10,471 nt of DNA from a virus (lineage: Duplodnaviria; Heunggongvirae; Uroviricota; Caudoviricetes): the IMG/VR virus record IMGVR_UViG_3300025122_006001; one strand, written 5' to 3'. The position numbers and the translations under genes are program-made. Under the pieces are notes generated by a model, which made no database searches, was not told where the DNA came from, and saw only the letters and a list, made by a program, of their open reading frames with translations. Numbering within the stretch: position 1 is the stretch's first letter; every line of letters starts with the position of its first letter. Positions 1 through 10,471 of the stretch are shown in pieces.

Positions 1-465
1 GGCATTGCCACAAGTGGGGCACTTAGAGTGTTCAAACCGGCTCCACCACTGATCTGTCTGTTTACTAGCTGTTCTAATTTTACGACCAGCAGTTACAGTA
101 GGCTGCTTTGACTGCGATAAAGCTTTTGCATAATCAATTGTTTCGCCTTTATCTTCAAATATAGACTTGTTATCTCCAAGAAGCATTACTCGAATAACTT
201 CTGAACCTTTATTAGTAATTTCAATTTTATCTCCAACGCTTTTTACGAGTTCTGATTTCTCCATTGCTACCACGTCTTCGCTTGAAACAGTAGCAGGTCT
301 GCGATATATCCTATCTTCAACTTTGTTGTCTTCATCTTTCCAAATATTAAATAAGTTTTTCGCAGCTTTTGGATGAACTAAATCTTTACTATGTAACCGA
401 TCAGTTATCTCTGGGACAAGAATAACTAAGTAATCGAAAACAGATTGTCCAAGTGTATTATGCAT
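1..465 (-). CDS. Hypothetical phage protein, 3'-truncated (155+ aa, MHNTLGQSVFDYLV...HSKCPTCGNA); possible winged-helix-like segment and a CxxC at the window edge
   Basis: Manual translation: ATG at 465-463 and 155 codons with no stop to position 1. It is missing from the ORF track because its stop lies outside the window. It overlaps the upstream gene stop by 8 nt (ATGCATAA). Confidence 0.85.
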   Translation of the reverse strand, partial: MHNTLGQSVFDYLVILVPEITDRLHSKDLVHPKAAKNLFNIWKDEDNKVEDRIYRRPATVSSEDVVAMEKSELVKSVGDKIEITNKGSEVIRVMLLGDNKSIFEDKGETIDYAKALSQSKQPTVTAGRKIRTASKQTDQWWSRFEHSKCPTCGNA

Positions 466-1888
466 ATTCTTTCTTTCTATTCTTATTTAGCCATTCCTCT
501 GTTTGTTCAGCCGATACTTTTTTTTCACAATCAAAATGAAGATGACGATGACAATTAGTACAAAGAACAATACATTTTTCTAACTCTCGCTGTATTACCT
601 TAAACCCAAAACTACAGCGAATAAGATCAGAAATTTTCTGCGTTTTTGAACTAGAATCTATATGATGAAAATCTAAACAAAACCATCGTTTTTCACCACA
701 ACAGGCACAAGAAGCGTTTTTCTTATAATCATCTAGCCAATCGCGCTTCTGTTTTTTCGCCAATCTTTTTGTTTTATTTATATGCTCTTTATTATTGATA
801 AAACGATCGGAACGACGTTTTAATTCTTTTTGCATTTTTTTCTTTTCACTTTTAGCAACCGCCTCTGTGCTCTTTATATGCTTATCATAATATTCCTGTT
901 GTACTGATTTTCGTTTGTATATTTTCTCTGCCTCAATACATTCAGGTGCGTTGCAGCATGCGTGAGAATGATATGTGTGTTTATAGCACCTTGTGCCACA
1001 ATGCTTACATGTCATTTGTTTATTATATTTCCTTTTAGAATCTACTCGCCTCTTAATAAGTCTTTCTGTTTCAAAACACTCATCAGAACAATATTTAACA
1101 TGATTAGGCGAAAAAATAAATTTCTTTTTACAGTGCACACATTCTGTGTAATCATCATCTAGATATTTTATATCATTCGACAAAAAATCTAATTTCTCTA
1201 CAGAGTTTAACCACTGAAAAGTCTGTTCAGGCGTTAAATCTCCTTTAAACAAAAAATGCAGATGTCTATGACAATTGGCACAAAGTAAAATACATTTATC
1301 TGCTTCTGCCTTTATGACAGCCAAGGGACAACCATTGTATACAATTCCTGCCATATTCAATTTCTTTTGAGAAATATCTAAATGATGAAAGTCTAAACAA
1401 AACCATCTGTTTTCACCACACTTCTCGCAAGACTTAGACTCTTTATAATTTGTTATCCATTCTCTTTTTTGTTTCCTTTCTAATCTCTTTTTTTGCTCAA
1501 CGGCTCGCATTTTCGTTGGGTTGTTCTTTCTATGCCGACGACTACTTTCTGCCTCTTTCTTTTTATCACGCTTAGATTTTCTAACGTGCGTATTATAATG
1601 TTTTCTCTGAGCTAGTTTCTTTCTATGGAGTTTTTCTTTGTCAATGCAGGATTCTTTGTTACAACAGCCTCCTGAATGATATGTCTTCCTATTCATAAAA
1701 AGACCACAATGTTTACACGTCATTTTTATGGCATAATTGGACTTGCAGAGCTTTTGCTCATATTCTTTTCTCGCCATCTTAAAACATTGACGACTACAAT
1801 AAAATCTATTTTCAGAGGAAGAAATGAATTTCTTTTCACAATACCGACAAGTTTTGTATTCCTCCGGTAAATATTCTGTTTTTGGCAT
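458..1888 (-). CDS. Tandem-duplicated HNH endonuclease (476 aa): two units, each with CxxC..YCSxxC, CKHC..CC..C, a basic helix and an HNH-type nuclease (CxxCGExRWFCLDFHH...KCIxLCxNCHRHLH)
   Basis: The motifs are visible twice in the translation (about aa 6-230 and 242-472). An AAGGAG Shine-Dalgarno site lies 6 nt before the ATG at 1888. Confidence 0.85.
   Translation of the reverse strand: MPKTEYLPEEYKTCRYCEKKFISSSENRFYCSRQCFKMARKEYEQKLCKSNYAIKMTCKHCGLFMNRKTYHSGGCCNKESCIDKEKLHRKKLAQRKHYNTHVRKSKRDKKKEAESSRRHRKNNPTKMRAVEQKKRLERKQKREWITNYKESKSCEKCGENRWFCLDFHHLDISQKKLNMAGIVYNGCPLAVIKAEADKCILLCANCHRHLHFLFKGDLTPEQTFQWLNSVEKLDFLSNDIKYLDDDYTECVHCKKKFIFSPNHVKYCSDECFETERLIKRRVDSKRKYNKQMTCKHCGTRCYKHTYHSHACCNAPECIEAEKIYKRKSVQQEYYDKHIKSTEAVAKSEKKKMQKELKRRSDRFINNKEHINKTKRLAKKQKRDWLDDYKKNASCACCGEKRWFCLDFHHIDSSSKTQKISDLIRCSFGFKVIQRELEKCIVLCTNCHRHLHFDCEKKVSAEQTEEWLNKNRKKEYA
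662..1420. repeat. Nucleotide trace of the internal duplication in the HNH gene: 662-700 versus 1382-1420
   Basis: 36 of 39 nt are identical at an offset of exactly 720 nt (CGExRWFCLDFHH coding segment). Confidence 0.9.
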
Positions 1889-4350: not shown

Positions 4351-5241
4351 TTAGACCACTATTAAATCTGGGTATGCTTTCTTAGCCTCTTCAATTGTAG
4401 GGAATAATTCTAATGCTTTGTCATCAACAGATAGCTTGTCTTCCGCATCTTTCTTTAACGACCTCTCCCAAACAGTTAACGCATTTTTTTTATTGTTTAA
4501 AACAAGGAAATGCTGCTTCACTTTTCCATCAATAAAAGCAAGCAACCTTGCTTTAGCAGAATTAATATCATTCATCTGCTGTTGCTCTTGCTCTGTCATT
4601 TCTCTACTTTCAAGTGCTGCTTTGCCAAAAAGCGTAAACAACATTGCATCTGCATCTTTTAGTGATGCTGTAACCATTTCATAAATTTTGTCTTCTTTCG
4701 CCATTCTTTTTTCATCTACTTGAATATCTTTATTAAGAGGCATTGTTTTATGTAGACCCTTAAATCTATCTGGATGGTTTTGCAATTGGCTTTTATGGTT
4801 ATTAGATGGAACCTTTGTCTTCATTGCTTCCGAGATATCTAGCCCAACATATTTATCCCAAAACACAGTATCTTTATCTTTAGCACCTTCTGCTGAACGA
4901 ACTACCTCATAGTGCTTCTGGTCATGAGCTTCTGCGACCTGCTGAACAGTTAAAAGACGAGAATCAGATATCTTATCTGAGCGACGAAGATTATATACTT
5001 GTTTATTATTATCAAACTTAGATTCTATAGTTCCTGGGTGGTCGTCGCCTGTGCGAGATTTGCTTAATTGTTGTTCCCAAGGAACATTTGTATCTTTCGC
5101 CCTATGGTCGCCTTTTTGAAGAAGCCAGTCATAATTACCAGGGTTCTTAGGCGTAAATTTATGAGGCTTAGTCTTTTCAACAAGCATCTGATCATAGTGC
5201 TTAGGGTCGTCTTTTTTAGCCATTTTGCTTTGATTAGACAT
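4351..5241 (-). CDS. Hypothetical phage protein (296 aa), possibly virion or head associated
   Basis: Long ORF whose ATG directly follows the iscB stop. Its apparent original Shine-Dalgarno site lies on the far side of the IscB cassette (GGAGAG at 6713-6718). Function is inferred only from position after terL. Confidence 0.85.
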   Translation of the reverse strand: MSNQSKMAKKDDPKHYDQMLVEKTKPHKFTPKNPGNYDWLLQKGDHRAKDTNVPWEQQLSKSRTGDDHPGTIESKFDNNKQVYNLRRSDKISDSRLLTVQQVAEAHDQKHYEVVRSAEGAKDKDTVFWDKYVGLDISEAMKTKVPSNNHKSQLQNHPDRFKGLHKTMPLNKDIQVDEKRMAKEDKIYEMVTASLKDADAMLFTLFGKAALESREMTEQEQQQMNDINSAKARLLAFIDGKVKQHFLVLNNKKNALTVWERSLKKDAEDKLSVDDKALELFPTIEEAKKAYPDLIVV

Positions 5242-6459
5242 TTAACTTTTCCATAATAAAGTCTGAAAACTCTCCAATAACTTCAAGCGTTTGCAATTTA
5301 CATTTTTACCAATAACGTCTCCATCTAATTTTCTAACATCAAAATATCCAGAATTTCTTCTACCAAAAATAAAACATTCAATTTTATTTAATAAAATTTT
5401 GTCAAATCTTTGAAAATCCTCTATAAATCTATATGCTGTATTTCGTATGTGACTTCGAGCACCTTTAAACAGTTTTCTGTTCTGTTTTCTCACTTGCTTA
5501 ATGATATATAGATGACCTCTTATTTGATCTATCCCCCCAGCAGTCACAAAAGCATCATTAATATGTGATTTAGATAAGTTCAATCTTATTCTGTTAGATT
5601 TTGTAATATAACCATAAGTAATATTAATAGGTAATCCTAACTTCTTTGCCTCTGCTACTATTCTCCACCTAATAATTGACATGAAAGTTTCTGGTTTAAA
5701 CTGTCTTGATCTTTTTGCTTTTAACTTAATTTCACCATTGTGATGTTTATCATGACAAGTCAAGCAGAGAGTAAGCAGATTTTCAGGATTATCTGTTCCT
5801 CCCTGGCTTCTAGGAATTATATGATGCACTTGAAGAATCTTATCTTTAGATTTCCCTTTACAATACTGACAAACATGATTATCTCTATGCAAAATATATT
5901 CCCTTATATTATAGAATCCTAGTTGTTCACCTTCTTGGTATTCTTTGCCATTGATATCTGGATCTTTAATTTTCTGTATATCAAAATTAGCTACTTCTAT
6001 ATTAATTTCTGTGATAGGAAGCAGTTTTGTGATTTTCTGAATTAATTTAATATGAGAATCTAATTTGTGTTGAACAGAAGGGGCTAACCAACCTTTTTCT
6101 ATTTTTCTGTTTAGAAACCTAGATTTACGATACCAAGTTTTTCTTGATCTTCTCGTTCTTCTATACATCTTTTTTTCTGAATTAAGATTAGGCATGTCAG
6201 TTCTCAACTGCGCTTCAGCAGAAAATACTTCTTTTTTCTCTGTGACAGCAGATAAGCCAACGCTTTTATAACCTGTATCTACTCCTAAAATAATTCTTTG
6301 TTTTGTCTCGCCAGTTGCATTTTTCAGTTGAATCGTGAACGGTGTTCTCTTTACAACACGAGCATCTCCTTTCTTTAACAAGACTCTTGCTTTACGAGAA
6401 GTAGTGGGCATAAGAGGTTCGCCTCTCATGTTGAGCACATAAATAGCAGGTACTCGCAA
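5242..6459 (-). CDS. iscB: IscB RNA-guided endonuclease (RRXRR/PLMP family), ~405 aa from TTG 6459; the frame is open to ATG 6636 (464 aa)
   Basis: PLMP motif (GEPLMPT), RuvC-I (ILGVDTGYKSVG), Arg-rich bridge helix (RRTRRSRKTWYRKSRFLNR), RuvC-II (INIEVANFD), HNH (CQYC..VHHIIPRSQGGTDNPENLLTLCLTCHDKHH) and RuvC-III (SHINDA). GGAG lies 8 nt before TTG 6459. Confidence 0.93.
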   Translation of the reverse strand: MRVPAIYVLNMRGEPLMPTTSRKARVLLKKGDARVVKRTPFTIQLKNATGETKQRIILGVDTGYKSVGLSAVTEKKEVFSAEAQLRTDMPNLNSEKKMYRRTRRSRKTWYRKSRFLNRKIEKGWLAPSVQHKLDSHIKLIQKITKLLPITEINIEVANFDIQKIKDPDINGKEYQEGEQLGFYNIREYILHRDNHVCQYCKGKSKDKILQVHHIIPRSQGGTDNPENLLTLCLTCHDKHHNGEIKLKAKRSRQFKPETFMSIIRWRIVAEAKKLGLPINITYGYITKSNRIRLNLSKSHINDAFVTAGGIDQIRGHLYIIKQVRKQNRKLFKGARSHIRNTAYRFIEDFQRFDKILLNKIECFIFGRRNSGYFDVRKLDGDVIGKNVNCKRLKLLESFQTLLWKS

Positions 6460-6707
6460 GTCCTGCTCTCCCTGTACTCGGGGAGTTAGAGCCTCATCGG
6501 GACTGTTATCAAAGGTTTTGAGATTCTGCAACACCGTCCCTACCTCACAGGACTGTTTAATCACAGAATCACAGTTGCTACGGACTTGAGGAGCATCCGT
6601 AGGTGTGTATGTGTTTCCCTCTGATAACTTCTGCATTATATTAATGCTCCCTAGTCAACCTAGAACTCATTTTATTGAGATCTCAGCATTAGCTGTCGGT
6701 AGTTGAC
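6445..6707 (-). ncRNA. IscB omegaRNA scaffold (approximate 3' end)
   Basis: It lies directly 5' of the PLMP-coding region. Stems seen: GTCAAC/GTTGAC (6707-6702/6659-6654), CAGC-TAAT-GCTG, ACGGA/TCCGT (6600-6580), GTCC/GGAC (6553-6536) and AGCAGG/CCTGCT (6467-6445). Layout matches known IscB loci. Confidence 0.8.
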
Positions 6708-6730
6708 TAAATCTCTCCAATATACCTTTC

Positions 6731-6757
6731 TTTCACAAAAAGCATAGCTTATCCTTT
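6731..6757 (-). promoter_or_regulatory. Candidate phage promoter motif AAAGGA-N17-GAAA (copy between terL and the IscB cassette)
   Basis: Minus strand reads AAAGGA taagctatgctttttgt GAAA, the same geometry as 1911-1937. It overlaps the terL stop codon. Confidence 0.35.
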
Positions 6758-9700
6758 ATCTTATGACAGGGTTTCTCCAAGGCTGGCGGTTAGCTAAAGC
6801 ATCTGCAACCTGTTGTCCTGTGCCGGATCCAATAGGACCTTGCATGCCCTGCCATACTCTTTCATTTGGTTGCGGCACGATACCCATATTTACCATCTTG
6901 CCCTGAGGCAGCATATTAGCATTCATATTGATTGCCGAATAGCAAGCTCCTGCAAGGGCATCGACTAAATCATCTGTCTTTATGCCATCTCCATTTCGCC
7001 TGGCAGAAATTCGATAACCAGTGGGAATGACCTTCTTTTGCAACCCGACCATTTCGTCCATGAGCAACGTTGCCGCAGGGTCATTATTAGGAACAATAAG
7101 TTTTCCAGCATTCACTATCTGCAACAGCTCAGAATAAATCACCATCTTGTGCCTGTTGGTGAAACGAGTCTCTTTATTTGGCAGTCCAGCTTTGCGCAAT
7201 CTAAGCTTACTCTCAATAGAATTCCAGGCATCGTATGTTACCATGCCAATTCTAAATAATCGCTTCAGCTTAATCACGAACTCATCTACTACCGAAGCTA
7301 TAACAGGCTGATTAGTCGTAGGATGCCAGTATTTCAGCAAATCCACCATAATCATATAATCTGCCTTACGTGTTTCTTCATTCAAAAATATTTGTTTGTG
7401 AACTAACGCTAAAGCATAATTATGACTTGTCGCGGCAGGATCGAGATGCAAGAAGTATATTTGTCCAGGTTCTCCAGTTTTTCTAAAACGAATATTGCCC
7501 TTGAAACATGACTTAGTGTGTTCTTCTGAAAAGAAGTTTTCACCAGCGATACCACTAAACTCTGCCCCAAATTCCATCTCAAACTCTTCTTCACTCATCG
7601 AGCTAAATTCTCGTTTTAGAGACTGACGGGTTCTTGCTGGCATAACATCCCAGCTTGGAAGTCTACAAGCGAGTCTTGTGTCATATAAATCAGCTTGCGA
7701 AAAAAGCTCCCAGAACTTGCCTTCTTTACCACGAGGCGATGATATACTGATAGTTTTTCCGTCATAAATAATGTCATTTTCCGGCTCTCCCTTGTCATCA
7801 ACTTTTTGTTTGCCATCACTATCTAACACGGGCACTTTGCGATAGTAAGTTGCAATGGTGGGAGTTAGGGATGCATAAATGCGATCTCCAGAAGAAGCGC
7901 CTCCTGTCGTTCTATATGAAGCAACTTCGTCAAGTATCAGCACAAAAACACCCTTACCTAGCAACGTAGCAGAGTTGCTATGCCCCACCTCAATAACAAT
8001 AGAGCCTTTTGTTTTCAATCCCATGTCCCTTGCCGCAAAATTTCTATTTTCTTCTTTATCTTTTGGCGTTAAAAGATAAACTTTACCCTCCTCTAAACCA
8101 TCTTTAATGTATTTGTCTGTAAAATATTTACTAGACAGCAGCTTACTTCTTATTTCTGCATATGCGACACCAGATTGTGCTTGCGAGTTAGCAACAGTCA
8201 ATATATTAATAGGGTTTGCATCGGCAATATTGTAATAGCCAAACGGATCGCCTCCAGGGCACTCCAAAAGCTTTAATGCCTCATAAAGTGCTATAATACT
8301 GACACAAAAATCTTTGCCCGAATTATGAGCTATAAACCCGTTGCTAACAAAGCTTTGCAACGATTTTTGACTACTCACTGAAAGATCAAACGTGCGTTTT
8401 TTACCAATTTTATTGATAGATCTAATTTTAAAAAACGAAAATGGACATTGATCCCTGTGCGTTGTTTTAATACTACTGTCAATACTTAATAACCTATTCA
8501 ACGCCATATGCACAGCCCCATCCTTGCCAATGAATCCAATATTTTTAAAAAATCTTTCTACATATAGTTTCCTTGAAAAATATAATCCGTAACTTACTGT
8601 GTGATATTGCCTTTTTATGTTTTTTTCATCTACAATATACGAATTAACCTTTTTAGTCCTTAAATTTGCTATAATACCAAACTTTAATAAAAGCTGTTGA
8701 ATCAAAATAGCCTGCTGTTTATTTGAACTATAAAACTCTATAGTGCAAACATTACGAGTCCCGACATGGCCATCACAGCTGAATAAAGCCCTAAGATATG
8801 CCGCTATAACATTTTTCGGACACTTAAACATCTCCAACGGCACAGATTTATAGTGACACGTTTTACCAGCCAAGTCCCATTTAGTTAACAGTTGCATCAA
8901 ATCGTTTTTCTTTCGCCTAGAACGATTTCTACCTGCTTTCTCGGAATAAAAAGATTCATTGACATATCTTTTTGAAGTGATCTTGTATTGGCAATGTGCT
9001 GATCGTGCACCAGTCCACGGATCCTTAAACATCTTTAAATTGTCACTAACTGCATCTAATCGAGAAGTCATATCTTTTAAGATGACATCATTGTCGCATG
9101 TAAAAAAAGTACATGTCTGAGAACAATTTCCATCTCCTGTCATATAGCCCAACAAAGATGCTTCATCAATAGAAATTTTCTGCGAATTTCCAAAGAATGG
9201 CACTTCTTCACAGATTGCAATCTTGTCTTTTTCTAAATCTAAGTCTTTTAACTGGATCCATCCACGTTGAGTCATAAACGGATGATTCTTAGTAGCCTCA
9301 ATAGTAAAGCCGCTCATAGCTTCTAAACAGAAGACTTCTCGTTCTCCCTGATAAATAATCTCTGCATTCTTTATTATTTGCATCTTGTTAAATTGTTCAT
9401 CATATGTCCATGAATCTATATTATGTTGCCCACTATCCCAGAGCTCCCCAAATGTATGCATGGCGCCATCTTTCGGATCAATGAGCATCATGTCCTCAGA
9501 TAAACATCTACGACCCCAGACAAGAACTAACTCTCTAAAAATAGCTTGACTAAAATACTTACTTCGCACGTTGCCGCGAACATCGTCTGTGAGCCCAAGA
9601 TCTTCACAAAGCTGCAATTCTGCTTCGGTAAGCTTGATGTGTTCATTCCCTCTAGATCCACGATAAAAAACCTTAAGGATTAGCGCTTGAGCGGGTGTTA

Positions 9701-9869
9701 GATTAACGGGAGTGCGTTGATAGGGGAGCCCTAAATAGTCTTCGCTGTTACAAAATTCTATGATATCTGGAATTTTTCTTGATGCAGTAGGCTCAAGAGA
9801 CACCTTCATATCCGTAATAATATCAGAAACGGATGTTCTAGTGCGAAATGGTTTGCGCCCTTTTGGCAT
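6756..9869 (-). CDS. terL: Terminase large subunit precursor containing an intein (1037 aa; ~642 aa after splicing)
   Basis: After intein removal the Walker A reads WGRR|SGKD. Also present: Walker B VLILDEVA, coupling motif ISISSPRG, and RNase H-like nuclease acidic motifs LHLDPA, TYDAWNS and DDLVDA. Confidence 0.92.
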   Translation of the reverse strand: MPKGRKPFRTRTSVSDIITDMKVSLEPTASRKIPDIIEFCNSEDYLGLPYQRTPVNLTPAQALILKVFYRGSRGNEHIKLTEAELQLCEDLGLTDDVRGNVRSKYFSQAIFRELVLVWGRRCLSEDMMLIDPKDGAMHTFGELWDSGQHNIDSWTYDEQFNKMQIIKNAEIIYQGEREVFCLEAMSGFTIEATKNHPFMTQRGWIQLKDLDLEKDKIAICEEVPFFGNSQKISIDEASLLGYMTGDGNCSQTCTFFTCDNDVILKDMTSRLDAVSDNLKMFKDPWTGARSAHCQYKITSKRYVNESFYSEKAGRNRSRRKKNDLMQLLTKWDLAGKTCHYKSVPLEMFKCPKNVIAAYLRALFSCDGHVGTRNVCTIEFYSSNKQQAILIQQLLLKFGIIANLRTKKVNSYIVDEKNIKRQYHTVSYGLYFSRKLYVERFFKNIGFIGKDGAVHMALNRLLSIDSSIKTTHRDQCPFSFFKIRSINKIGKKRTFDLSVSSQKSLQSFVSNGFIAHNSGKDFCVSIIALYEALKLLECPGGDPFGYYNIADANPINILTVANSQAQSGVAYAEIRSKLLSSKYFTDKYIKDGLEEGKVYLLTPKDKEENRNFAARDMGLKTKGSIVIEVGHSNSATLLGKGVFVLILDEVASYRTTGGASSGDRIYASLTPTIATYYRKVPVLDSDGKQKVDDKGEPENDIIYDGKTISISSPRGKEGKFWELFSQADLYDTRLACRLPSWDVMPARTRQSLKREFSSMSEEEFEMEFGAEFSGIAGENFFSEEHTKSCFKGNIRFRKTGEPGQIYFLHLDPAATSHNYALALVHKQIFLNEETRKADYMIMVDLLKYWHPTTNQPVIASVVDEFVIKLKRLFRIGMVTYDAWNSIESKLRLRKAGLPNKETRFTNRHKMVIYSELLQIVNAGKLIVPNNDPAATLLMDEMVGLQKKVIPTGYRISARRNGDGIKTDDLVDALAGACYSAINMNANMLPQGKMVNMGIVPQPNERVWQGMQGPIGSGTGQQVADALANRQPWRNPVIR
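8322..9506 (-). mobile_element. Intein with LAGLIDADG homing endonuclease (395 aa) inserted in the TerL Walker A
   Basis: N-terminal Cys (CLSEDM, TGT at 9506), block B TKNH, endonuclease blocks LLGYMTGDG and YLRALFSCDG, LLLKFGI, block F TFDLSV, C-terminal HN (ends 8322) and +1 Ser. Confidence 0.95.
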
Positions 9870-10237: not shown

Positions 10238-10345
10238 GTCAATGACCCCTATCATAAAGGATGGGGCTTGTAACTGAATCGTGAGAAACGTTACTATAAG
10301 CCGATTGACATACGGCTCGTTTTTCAGCGGCTTGCCGCTGAAAAA
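10238..10345 (-). ncRNA. TnpB right-end omega/reRNA scaffold (at least this part), overlapping the tnpB 3' end
   Basis: Stems seen: 11-bp TTTTTCAGCGG-CAAG-CCGCTGAAAAA (10345-10320), AGCCG/CGGCT (10317-10299), GTAAC/GTTAC (10294-10270) and the right-end hairpin. The loop ATGTCAAT is complementary to the terminal ATTGACAT. Confidence 0.7.
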
Positions 10346-10469
10346 GCGATCGAAGAGCTATATTACAAGCTCCAATACGATCTGCATTATCTTGATATCT
10401 ACAAGATCTGCACCGGAATTTCAAGCCATTCCGGTTGGCTTTTTCACAGTGACCACAGACAGGACAAGA
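10239..10469 (-). CDS. tnpB: TnpB RNA-guided nuclease, C-terminal fragment (Zn ribbon + RuvC-III), 5'-truncated
   Basis: The frame is open to the window edge and reads SCPVCGHCEKANRNGLKFRCRSCRYQDNADRIGACNIA, giving two CxxC pairs and an ADxxGAxNIA motif. The track start at 10424 is an artefact of truncation. Confidence 0.88.
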   Translation of the reverse strand, partial: SCPVCGHCEKANRNGLKFRCRSCRYQDNADRIGACNIALRSLFQRQAAEKRAVCQSAYSNVSHDSVTSPILYDRGH

Positions 10470-10471
10470 CT

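Follow-up and report, generated by a model that had tools for sequence, protein, structure and literature searches.

In a 10,471-nucleotide (nt) stretch of tailed-phage DNA (Caudoviricetes; IMG/VR record IMGVR_UViG_3300025122_006001; hereafter the window), which belongs to a 14,517-bp marine metagenome contig (L084), an IscB–omegaRNA cassette separates GGAG-N7 from the ATG of a gene encoding 296 amino acids (aa), downstream of the large terminase gene terL. The minus strand of the window reads, in order, GGAG (6718-6715), AGATTTA (6714-6708), the insertion junction, and GTCAAC (from 6707); at the 3' junction, the cassette ends in ...AGTTAA at 5242 and is followed by ATGTCTAAT from 5241. An initial annotation of this DNA had claimed a 1466-nt insert placed exactly between a ribosome-binding site and its start codon. 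The insert as we delimited it (6707-5242, minus strand, 1,466 nt) has the same length, and its placement is borne out by the sequence, by the start of the omegaRNA match, and by the empty alleles of related phages. Our preferred reading, to which we assign a probability of about 0.45, is that the cassette is a non-autonomous ISC element (IS200/IS605 superfamily) that homes by RNA-guided cutting of the empty allele, provided that its truncated enzyme accepts ATGT in the target-adjacent motif (TAM).

The Rfam model HEARO (RF02033) matched the window at 6707..6485(-) with 112.6 bits against a gathering score of 83 (E 3.2e-23); the match spans model positions 1-211, that is, the full model, and model position 1 is the first inserted base. 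The uninterrupted site, for which the initial annotation had proposed a search in related genomes, was found in all six related lineages. Two of these empty alleles, L001 from IMG/VR and L165 from Tara Oceans, read ...GGAGAAATTTA followed directly by ATGTTTAATCAAAGC, and their flanks are colinear with the window to the base; the 296-aa protein of the window shows 75-76% aa identity to those of L001 and L165. Insert-free GGAG-N6-7-ATG was also present in L166, which comes from the sample that yielded the window, and in L002 and L167/L168, in agreement with the normal GGAG-spacer-ATG start that had been predicted for the excised site. Because these empty alleles in related marine phages define the flanks, the junction is exact to one ambiguous A, which ends both the left flank and the insert. 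The comparison also showed that the junction is scarless and without target duplication. The insertion junction is thus real and not a product of chance. A 9-nt repeat (ATTGGAGAG), which occurs in the guide flank and near the iscB 3' end, was rejected as a boundary, since the second IscB copy of the contig (copy 2; the cassette in the window is copy 1) encodes the conserved LLE motif and the empty alleles fix the junction elsewhere.

The empty alleles could alternatively be donor joints, if the cassette were ancestral and the relatives had lost it by precise excision; excision by IS200/IS605 elements is scarless, so empty and excised sites look alike. We regard this as highly improbable, because all six lineages, including the distant ones (63% and 53% identity), are empty with a normal arrangement of Shine–Dalgarno (SD) sequence, spacer, and ATG, a single gain is far more parsimonious than repeated loss, and copy 1 is without the left end that is needed for excision.

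That the insert is an IscB cassette, as the initial annotation had stated, was confirmed at the level of both protein and RNA. The protein contains the Pfam domains RRXRR (4.5e-62, full profile) and HNH (5.6e-15) and aligns to OgeuIscB-type chains of the Protein Data Bank (PDB) with an E value of 1.8e-46, the motifs ...GEPLMP... and GVD61TG included. In this alignment, the RuvC and HNH catalytic positions of solved IscBs are matched by D61, E155, H212/H213, H299, and D302, and the HNH domain lies within a split RuvC (RuvC-II E155; RuvC-III H299/D302). The cognate omegaRNA stands directly upstream of iscB on the same strand. The alignment to OgeuIscB makes TTG 6459 the likely start of iscB; a longer open reading frame (ORF) that begins at ATG 6636 and runs across the omegaRNA probably represents an artefact. 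Over its 405 codons the ORF is uninterrupted. Because the ratio of nonsynonymous to synonymous divergence (dN/dS) between the whole genes of copies 1 and 2 is 0.245 with a dS of 0.50, iscB has been under purifying selection on average. The 5' 58 nt of the cassette, which form its right end, fold as DNA with -9.1 kcal/mol (z = -3.8), and the right-end terminus ...GTTGAC (GTCAAC on the iscB strand) is consistent with the 5'-GTCA described by Kapitonov et al. Judged by these features, the cassette is a member of the IscB family, derived from the ISC N/ATGA group, that lacks one defining transposon feature, namely the left end.

The guide of an IscB is the 5' flank, encoded outside the element, and the TAM adjoins the left end (Meers et al. 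2023, 10.1101/2023.03.14.532601). By analogy, the earlier proposal that the guide here is the 5' flank bearing the ribosome-binding site, with the TAM on the side of the 3' flank and its ATG, is consistent with established rules of the family. The predicted guide, whose 16-nt length was borrowed from OgeuIscB, coincides with the original leader of the 296-aa gene. ATG-type TAMs, which had been said to be known among IscBs, do have precedents: the GstIscB TAM TTCAT corresponds to ATGAA in guide orientation (10.1101/2023.03.14.532601), and several ISC families with the 5' terminus GTCA insert at N/ATGA (Kapitonov, Makarova & Koonin 2016, PMC4810608). As for the function of the 296-aa gene, there was no Pfam or PHROG match and no usable match in an ESM Atlas search, and the AlphaFold model of the protein (mean pLDDT, the per-residue confidence score, 59.9) was too poor for a fold search. 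A second in-frame ATG lies at codon 7 of this gene, at window 5223-5221 (-) (...AGCAAAATGGCT), where L001 and L165 have ACT, and the public gene call begins at this codon (290 aa); the codon-7 ATG may have arisen as an alternative start once the SD had been displaced.

Copy 2, the second IscB–omegaRNA unit (L084:12251-13766), is located about 1.7 kb beyond window position 1, and its protein has 80% aa identity to that of copy 1. Its left end is intact (GGAGG..CCTCC, a small hairpin, GGGTTTCC plus 14 nt, and then ATGATAAAA, with the flank ATGATA), and comparison with the L001 empty allele showed that it abuts the true start (MIKILENLK) of the next gene. The reconstructed empty site of copy 2 is 5 nt shorter than the L001 intergenic spacer, and an ATG inside its left end, 4 nt past the iscB stop and in frame with the next start, would add 8 residues (MGFHNTFF). 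When the two copies were aligned, the ORFs were 85-90% identical, the 5' stem-loop region was divergent, and the 3' ends differed sharply. The omegaRNA body is about 97% identical (window 6485-6660 versus L084:12300-12475) despite the dS of 0.50 in the ORF, and the first 48 nt, which hold the right-end stem-loops, have strongly diverged; this pattern suggests that either the scaffold is very strongly constrained or the copies have undergone gene conversion.

The left-end architecture of copy 2 and about 30 relatives (GGAGG..CCTCC..GGxTxTCC plus 10-22 nt to the boundary) is absent from copy 1. In the clade, these hairpins lie inside the iscB coding sequence (CDS) and encode the conserved C-terminal tail (ERR = GAAAGGAGG, LP = CTTCCTCC, GVS = GGGGTATCC; L087-L164, L013, L016, L080), which indicates that the left-end DNA serves both as TnpA substrate and as coding sequence for the protein tail. 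Because the missing hairpins encode the tail, the copy 1 IscB is without the last 20 or so residues; for the same loss of hairpins, TnpA probably cannot move copy 1. No tnpA gene (Y1 transposase) was found on the 14.5-kb contig. Divergence between the two copies is greatest in the C-terminal 75 residues (65% aa identity, dN 0.25, dN/dS 0.29), and the core of the TAM domain (FGRR..GYFD..LDG..LLE) is present in copy 1. The empty alleles of close relatives likewise read ATGTTT, and because they share the ATGT, the copy 1 element appears to have landed at an off-consensus site.

The cassette entered the phage genome directly 5' of the ATG of the gene that follows terL, and it is co-oriented with the phage genes. 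In our preferred reading, read-through from terL, the co-oriented gene upstream, would yield a transcript in which the old leader ATATTGGAGAGATTTA, SD included, is joined to the omegaRNA scaffold; the interval 5100-7000 showed no site resembling a terminator or a minus-strand promoter. IscB loaded with this leader-guide RNA would recognise the element-free allele (guide match plus ATGTCT as TAM) and cut it between the SD and the ATG. The cassette would then be restored by recombination with a genome that carries it, be it a sister copy or a co-infecting relative. The filled allele would be immune because GTCAAC stands in place of the TAM. The 296-aa gene would be translated by termination-reinitiation at TAA/ATG, and its translational coupling to iscB is plausible. 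Since TnpA could neither excise nor move copy 1 without the left end, copy 1 would have no selfish route other than RNA-guided homing or retention, which requires that its truncated enzyme can still use ATGT. Bounding of the omegaRNA by the right end, donor-joint cleavage plus recombination, and a preference for the orientation of the upstream gene are known rules of the family (10.1101/2023.03.14.532601). A 2026 review (PMC13565253) discusses how OMEGA elements may home into phages or plasmids independently of TnpA, and, as summarised there, such spread has been shown for TnpB on plasmids. A demonstration of TnpA-independent homing for a phage IscB was not found in the literature searched.

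Several observations weigh against such homing. Among the six related lineages, all of them empty, there was no filled site in a second phage lineage, and the other cassette-bearing contigs come from this one phage (98.7% identity). Of the 16 guide positions, 2-3 are mismatched in the nearest empty alleles. No SD was found in the last 15 nt of iscB, ahead of the 296-aa gene. On the protein side, the copy 1 IscB ends 2 aa past 'LLW', while all 35 of 35 aligned relatives extend further, and its TAM-domain loop DVIGKNVNC differs from both the consensus TKVHASASY and copy 2. The flank of copy 1 is ATGT, as against an A at position 4 in 34/36 relatives, whose boundaries were chosen partly by ATGA. 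To judge from its sequence, the truncated IscB may be dead or impaired. A low-depth contig from four sequencing runs (X2, 4971-5552) bridges the 3' junction in the filled form; in the short low-depth contigs of these four runs, none joins across 5242-6707, which is uninformative about the absence of an empty allele.

It is a real, if tentative, possibility that the cassette is an immobilised relic, which lost its left end and IscB tail, performs no useful cutting, and persists as a harmless insertion through read-through and stop-start coupling while precise deletion is rare. The missing left-end hairpins and the truncation relative to all aligned relatives would fit this explanation, as would the confinement of the filled site to one phage lineage, the off-consensus ATGT flank, given that GstIscB cleavage is reported to be very sensitive to mutations in its TAM (10.1101/2023.03.14.532601), and the position of the TAM-domain region as the most diverged one between the copies (65% aa identity, dN 0.25). 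A relic, however, does not readily account for an uninterrupted 405-codon ORF in which all RuvC and HNH catalytic residues are kept, for dN/dS values (0.245 for the whole gene, 0.29 for the C-terminal part) that are not neutral, or for an omegaRNA that scores well above the Rfam threshold over the full model.

It seems unlikely that the cassette, without its left end, now acts in marine phages purely as a homing endonuclease gene that is RNA-guided and independent of TnpA, whose TAM reading has moved to ATGT, whose guide is tied to the SD leader of a conserved gene, and which leaves the gene downstream to be expressed by stop-start coupling. One other relative, L094, also sits at ATGT; its residues were rejected as backing for a retuned TAM reading, since its TAM domain resembles those of ATGA-flanked sisters and not that of copy 1. 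To label the element a start-site-targeting homing drive exceeds the evidence. We also consider it improbable that the nuclease is kept for the benefit of the phage as a weapon, with or without copying of the cassette: by RNA-guided marker exclusion, it would cut competing related phages where translation of an essential gene begins. Many nucleases are indeed gathered on one 14.5-kb contig (an intein, a double HNH, a TnpB, and two IscBs), exclusion of competitors is known for homing endonucleases that stand free in phage genomes (review, PMC13565253), and the guide lies in a leader that is conserved as GGAG-N6-7-ATG in all relatives. However, the known relatives mismatch the guide at no fewer than (at least) 2 positions and none has a canonical ATGA TAM at the site, essentiality of the 296-aa gene is unsupported by Pfam, PHROG, the structure model, or the ESM Atlas, and the same arrangement occurs in cellular genomes, where such a benefit does not apply.

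The relatives of this IscB (50-66% identity, from IMG/VR and metagenomes) allowed the start-codon placement to be assessed across the clade. Their right ends were mapped by Rfam, and their left ends by the motif GGxTxTCC, then 10-22 nt, then ATGA. Both ends could be mapped in 30 loci, and in 22 of these a co-oriented ORF of at least 85 codons begins at the boundary ATG; as a control, other ATGA sites in the same flanks open such an ORF in 135/673 cases (20%; binomial p about 5e-10). The boundary ATG was the first start codon after an in-frame stop in 18/30 reconstructed empty sites, and a core SD lay 3-11 nt upstream of it, inside the guide, in 10/30, compared with 13% of controls (p = 0.004). 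The iscB stop is at most 4 nt from the boundary ATG in 15/36 loci, and is often the TGA of ATGA itself. The TAM logo of the relatives (A35 T36 G35 A34 of 36) is biased, because ATGA partly steered the choice of left-end boundary; this bias does not extend to the ORF test. A replacement SD carried by the left end of the relatives was not significant (8/36 versus 13% of controls, p = 0.09). Multi-copy IscB families from IMG/VR sample 3300045988 (47-48% identity) were also considered for defining the ends and were set aside, as their omegaRNA start differs and each sits at one site.

These results show that placement between a ribosome-binding site and an ATG is the usual state of this IscB clade and not a special adaptation of copy 1; it is explained by the target motif together with the retention of harmless, transcribed insertions. 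Because start-codon placement is so common in the clade (22/30), no selection for hard-to-mutate start sites, to which the initial annotation had pointed, is needed. In the literature searched, we did not find a start-codon rule stated for N/ATGA-targeting IscB elements, and start codons are mentioned 0 times in Kapitonov et al. 2016 (PMC4810608).

The closest known systems are the ISC transposons with N/ATGA targets (ISC1-1_MA of Microcystis, ISC2-1_HM, and ISC2-1_MS; PMC4810608). They share with copy 1 the 5' GTCA..., iscB as sole gene, the lack of target duplication, insertion directly 5' of an ATG-starting tetranucleotide, and the existence of tnpB relatives with the same ends in opposite orientation relative to them; copy 1 differs in its ATGT flank, its missing 3' (left-end) hairpins, and its marine phage host. 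GstIscB of ISGst5 from Geobacillus stearothermophilus (10.1101/2023.03.14.532601) likewise has an omegaRNA upstream of iscB that is bounded by the right end, a guide taken from the flank, a TAM (ATGAA) by the left end, and co-orientation with the upstream gene, and its proposed role is to cut the element-free site and force re-copying. In contrast, copy 1 has no left end, differs at the predicted TAM position 4, and has no tnpA on its contig. OgeuIscB (PDB 7XHT, 7UTN, 8CSZ) agrees with the copy 1 protein in domain order and catalytic residues (phmmer E about 1e-43; D61 aligns to D61), and its TAM, NWRRNA, lies 3' of the target, on the same side as predicted here; the copy 1 IscB is about 90 residues shorter, and the C-terminal tail is absent.

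Two further comparisons bear on spread. As summarised in PMC13565253, T-even phages have free-standing homing endonuclease genes (SegF, SegB, Mob), in which a nuclease gene likewise lies between conserved phage genes, from where it could spread by cutting co-infecting relatives and being copied in their repair. Unlike these, copy 1 is predicted to recognise its target by an RNA guide plus TAM and not by protein, and self and non-self would be told apart by the presence of the insert, as in intron homing. The TnpB-driven IS605 gene drive in plasmids (Mears et al. 2025 preprint, as summarised in PMC13565253) shares TnpA-independent spread into empty homologous sites ('non-restorative homing'); that case concerns TnpB on a plasmid and is experimental, whereas the present one concerns IscB in a phage and is inferred.

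A TnpB element was found on the same contig. Its C-terminus is encoded at window 10238-10471 (-) and onward to the contig end (L084:1-304; Pfam Cas12f1-like TNB, 1e-19). The right end of the element, ...GGGGTCATTGAC, directly adjoins ATGATTAAGCCAGAAG, where a gene called as 128 aa has its true start (MIKPEEYK, window 10237), and the L001 empty allele at this site reads ...ATTTTTAC followed directly by ATGATAAAACC. Because this empty allele defines the TnpB junction, the TnpB TAM would be TTAC-like, and the guide would be the first codons of the 128-aa gene. A weak HEARO match at 10238-10366(+) is the reverse complement of the TnpB right end. The TnpB and IscB elements thus share one right-end type, in opposite orientation relative to the genes. 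Altogether, three OMEGA elements (two IscB, one TnpB) abut start codons on one phage contig.

The minus strand of the window is a phage packaging and structural block, comprising the 122/128-aa gene, terL, the cassette, the 296-aa gene, small genes, and a gene for a 476-aa double HNH endonuclease; the main features are collected in Table 1. At the DNA level, none of 50,697 GenBank phage records was matched when the whole window was searched by megablast, and among sequencing runs the stretch was present only in Logan contigs of marine and vent metagenomes, with no RNA run listed. The terL intein also occurs in L002 (1,049 aa) and L167 (about 1,035 aa), and the terL of L001 (649 aa) has no intein. 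The 476-aa protein (window 458-1888 (-)) gives two tandem PHROG HNH-endonuclease matches and resembles a double HNH; since L001 has no ORF of such size in the corresponding interval, its gene probably represents a further free-standing insertion. Between terL and the homologue of the 296-aa gene, a more distant relative has a 211-aa gene (L167:2318-2953, L168:1461-2096), so that this intergenic slot is taken by a different insert in L167/L168.

Table 1 Main features of the IscB locus, in window coordinates.
Feature	Position	Strand	Remarks
296-aa conserved phage gene	4351..5241	-	Intact ORF, now without its own SD; homologues with 76-32% identity in marine phage contigs
Predicted TAM, ATGTCT	5236..5241	-	Opens with the ATG at which the 296-aa gene starts; junction fixed by empty alleles
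Cassette 3' end, without left-end hairpins	5242..5331	-	iscB stop adjoins the next ATG; DNA fold of the last 90 nt -2.2 kcal/mol, z = +0.38
iscB CDS, 405 aa	5242..6459	-	Likely start TTG 6459 behind GGGAGAG; stop TAA 5244-5242
omegaRNA scaffold (HEARO)	6485..6707	-	Rfam RF02033; 5' stem-loops double as IS200/IS605 right end
Predicted 16-nt guide, ATATTGGAGAGATTTA	6708..6723	-	Directly 5' of HEARO model position 1; contains SD GGAG 6718-6715
terL, large terminase, 1,037 aa, with LAGLIDADG intein	6756..9869	-	Pfam Intein_splicing and LAGLIDADG_3; PHROG terminase large subunit

The locus offers a readable natural triplet of predicted guide, target, and TAM for a compact (405-aa) phage-borne IscB, and copies 1 and 2 form a natural pair on one contig with which to ask how TAM reading and activity depend on the left end and on the C-terminal tail. 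More generally, the survey of relatives supports the rule that N/ATGA-targeting IscB elements usually land on start codons, which means that their guides are ribosome-binding-site leaders; such a start-codon rule would explain how these elements are transcribed, and why gene-dense genomes tolerate them. Should the copy without a left end still home, it would amount to a natural RNA-guided gene drive among phages and, taken with the neighbouring TnpB and the second IscB, would point to 'start-codon parasitism' as a general OMEGA strategy in compact phage genomes.

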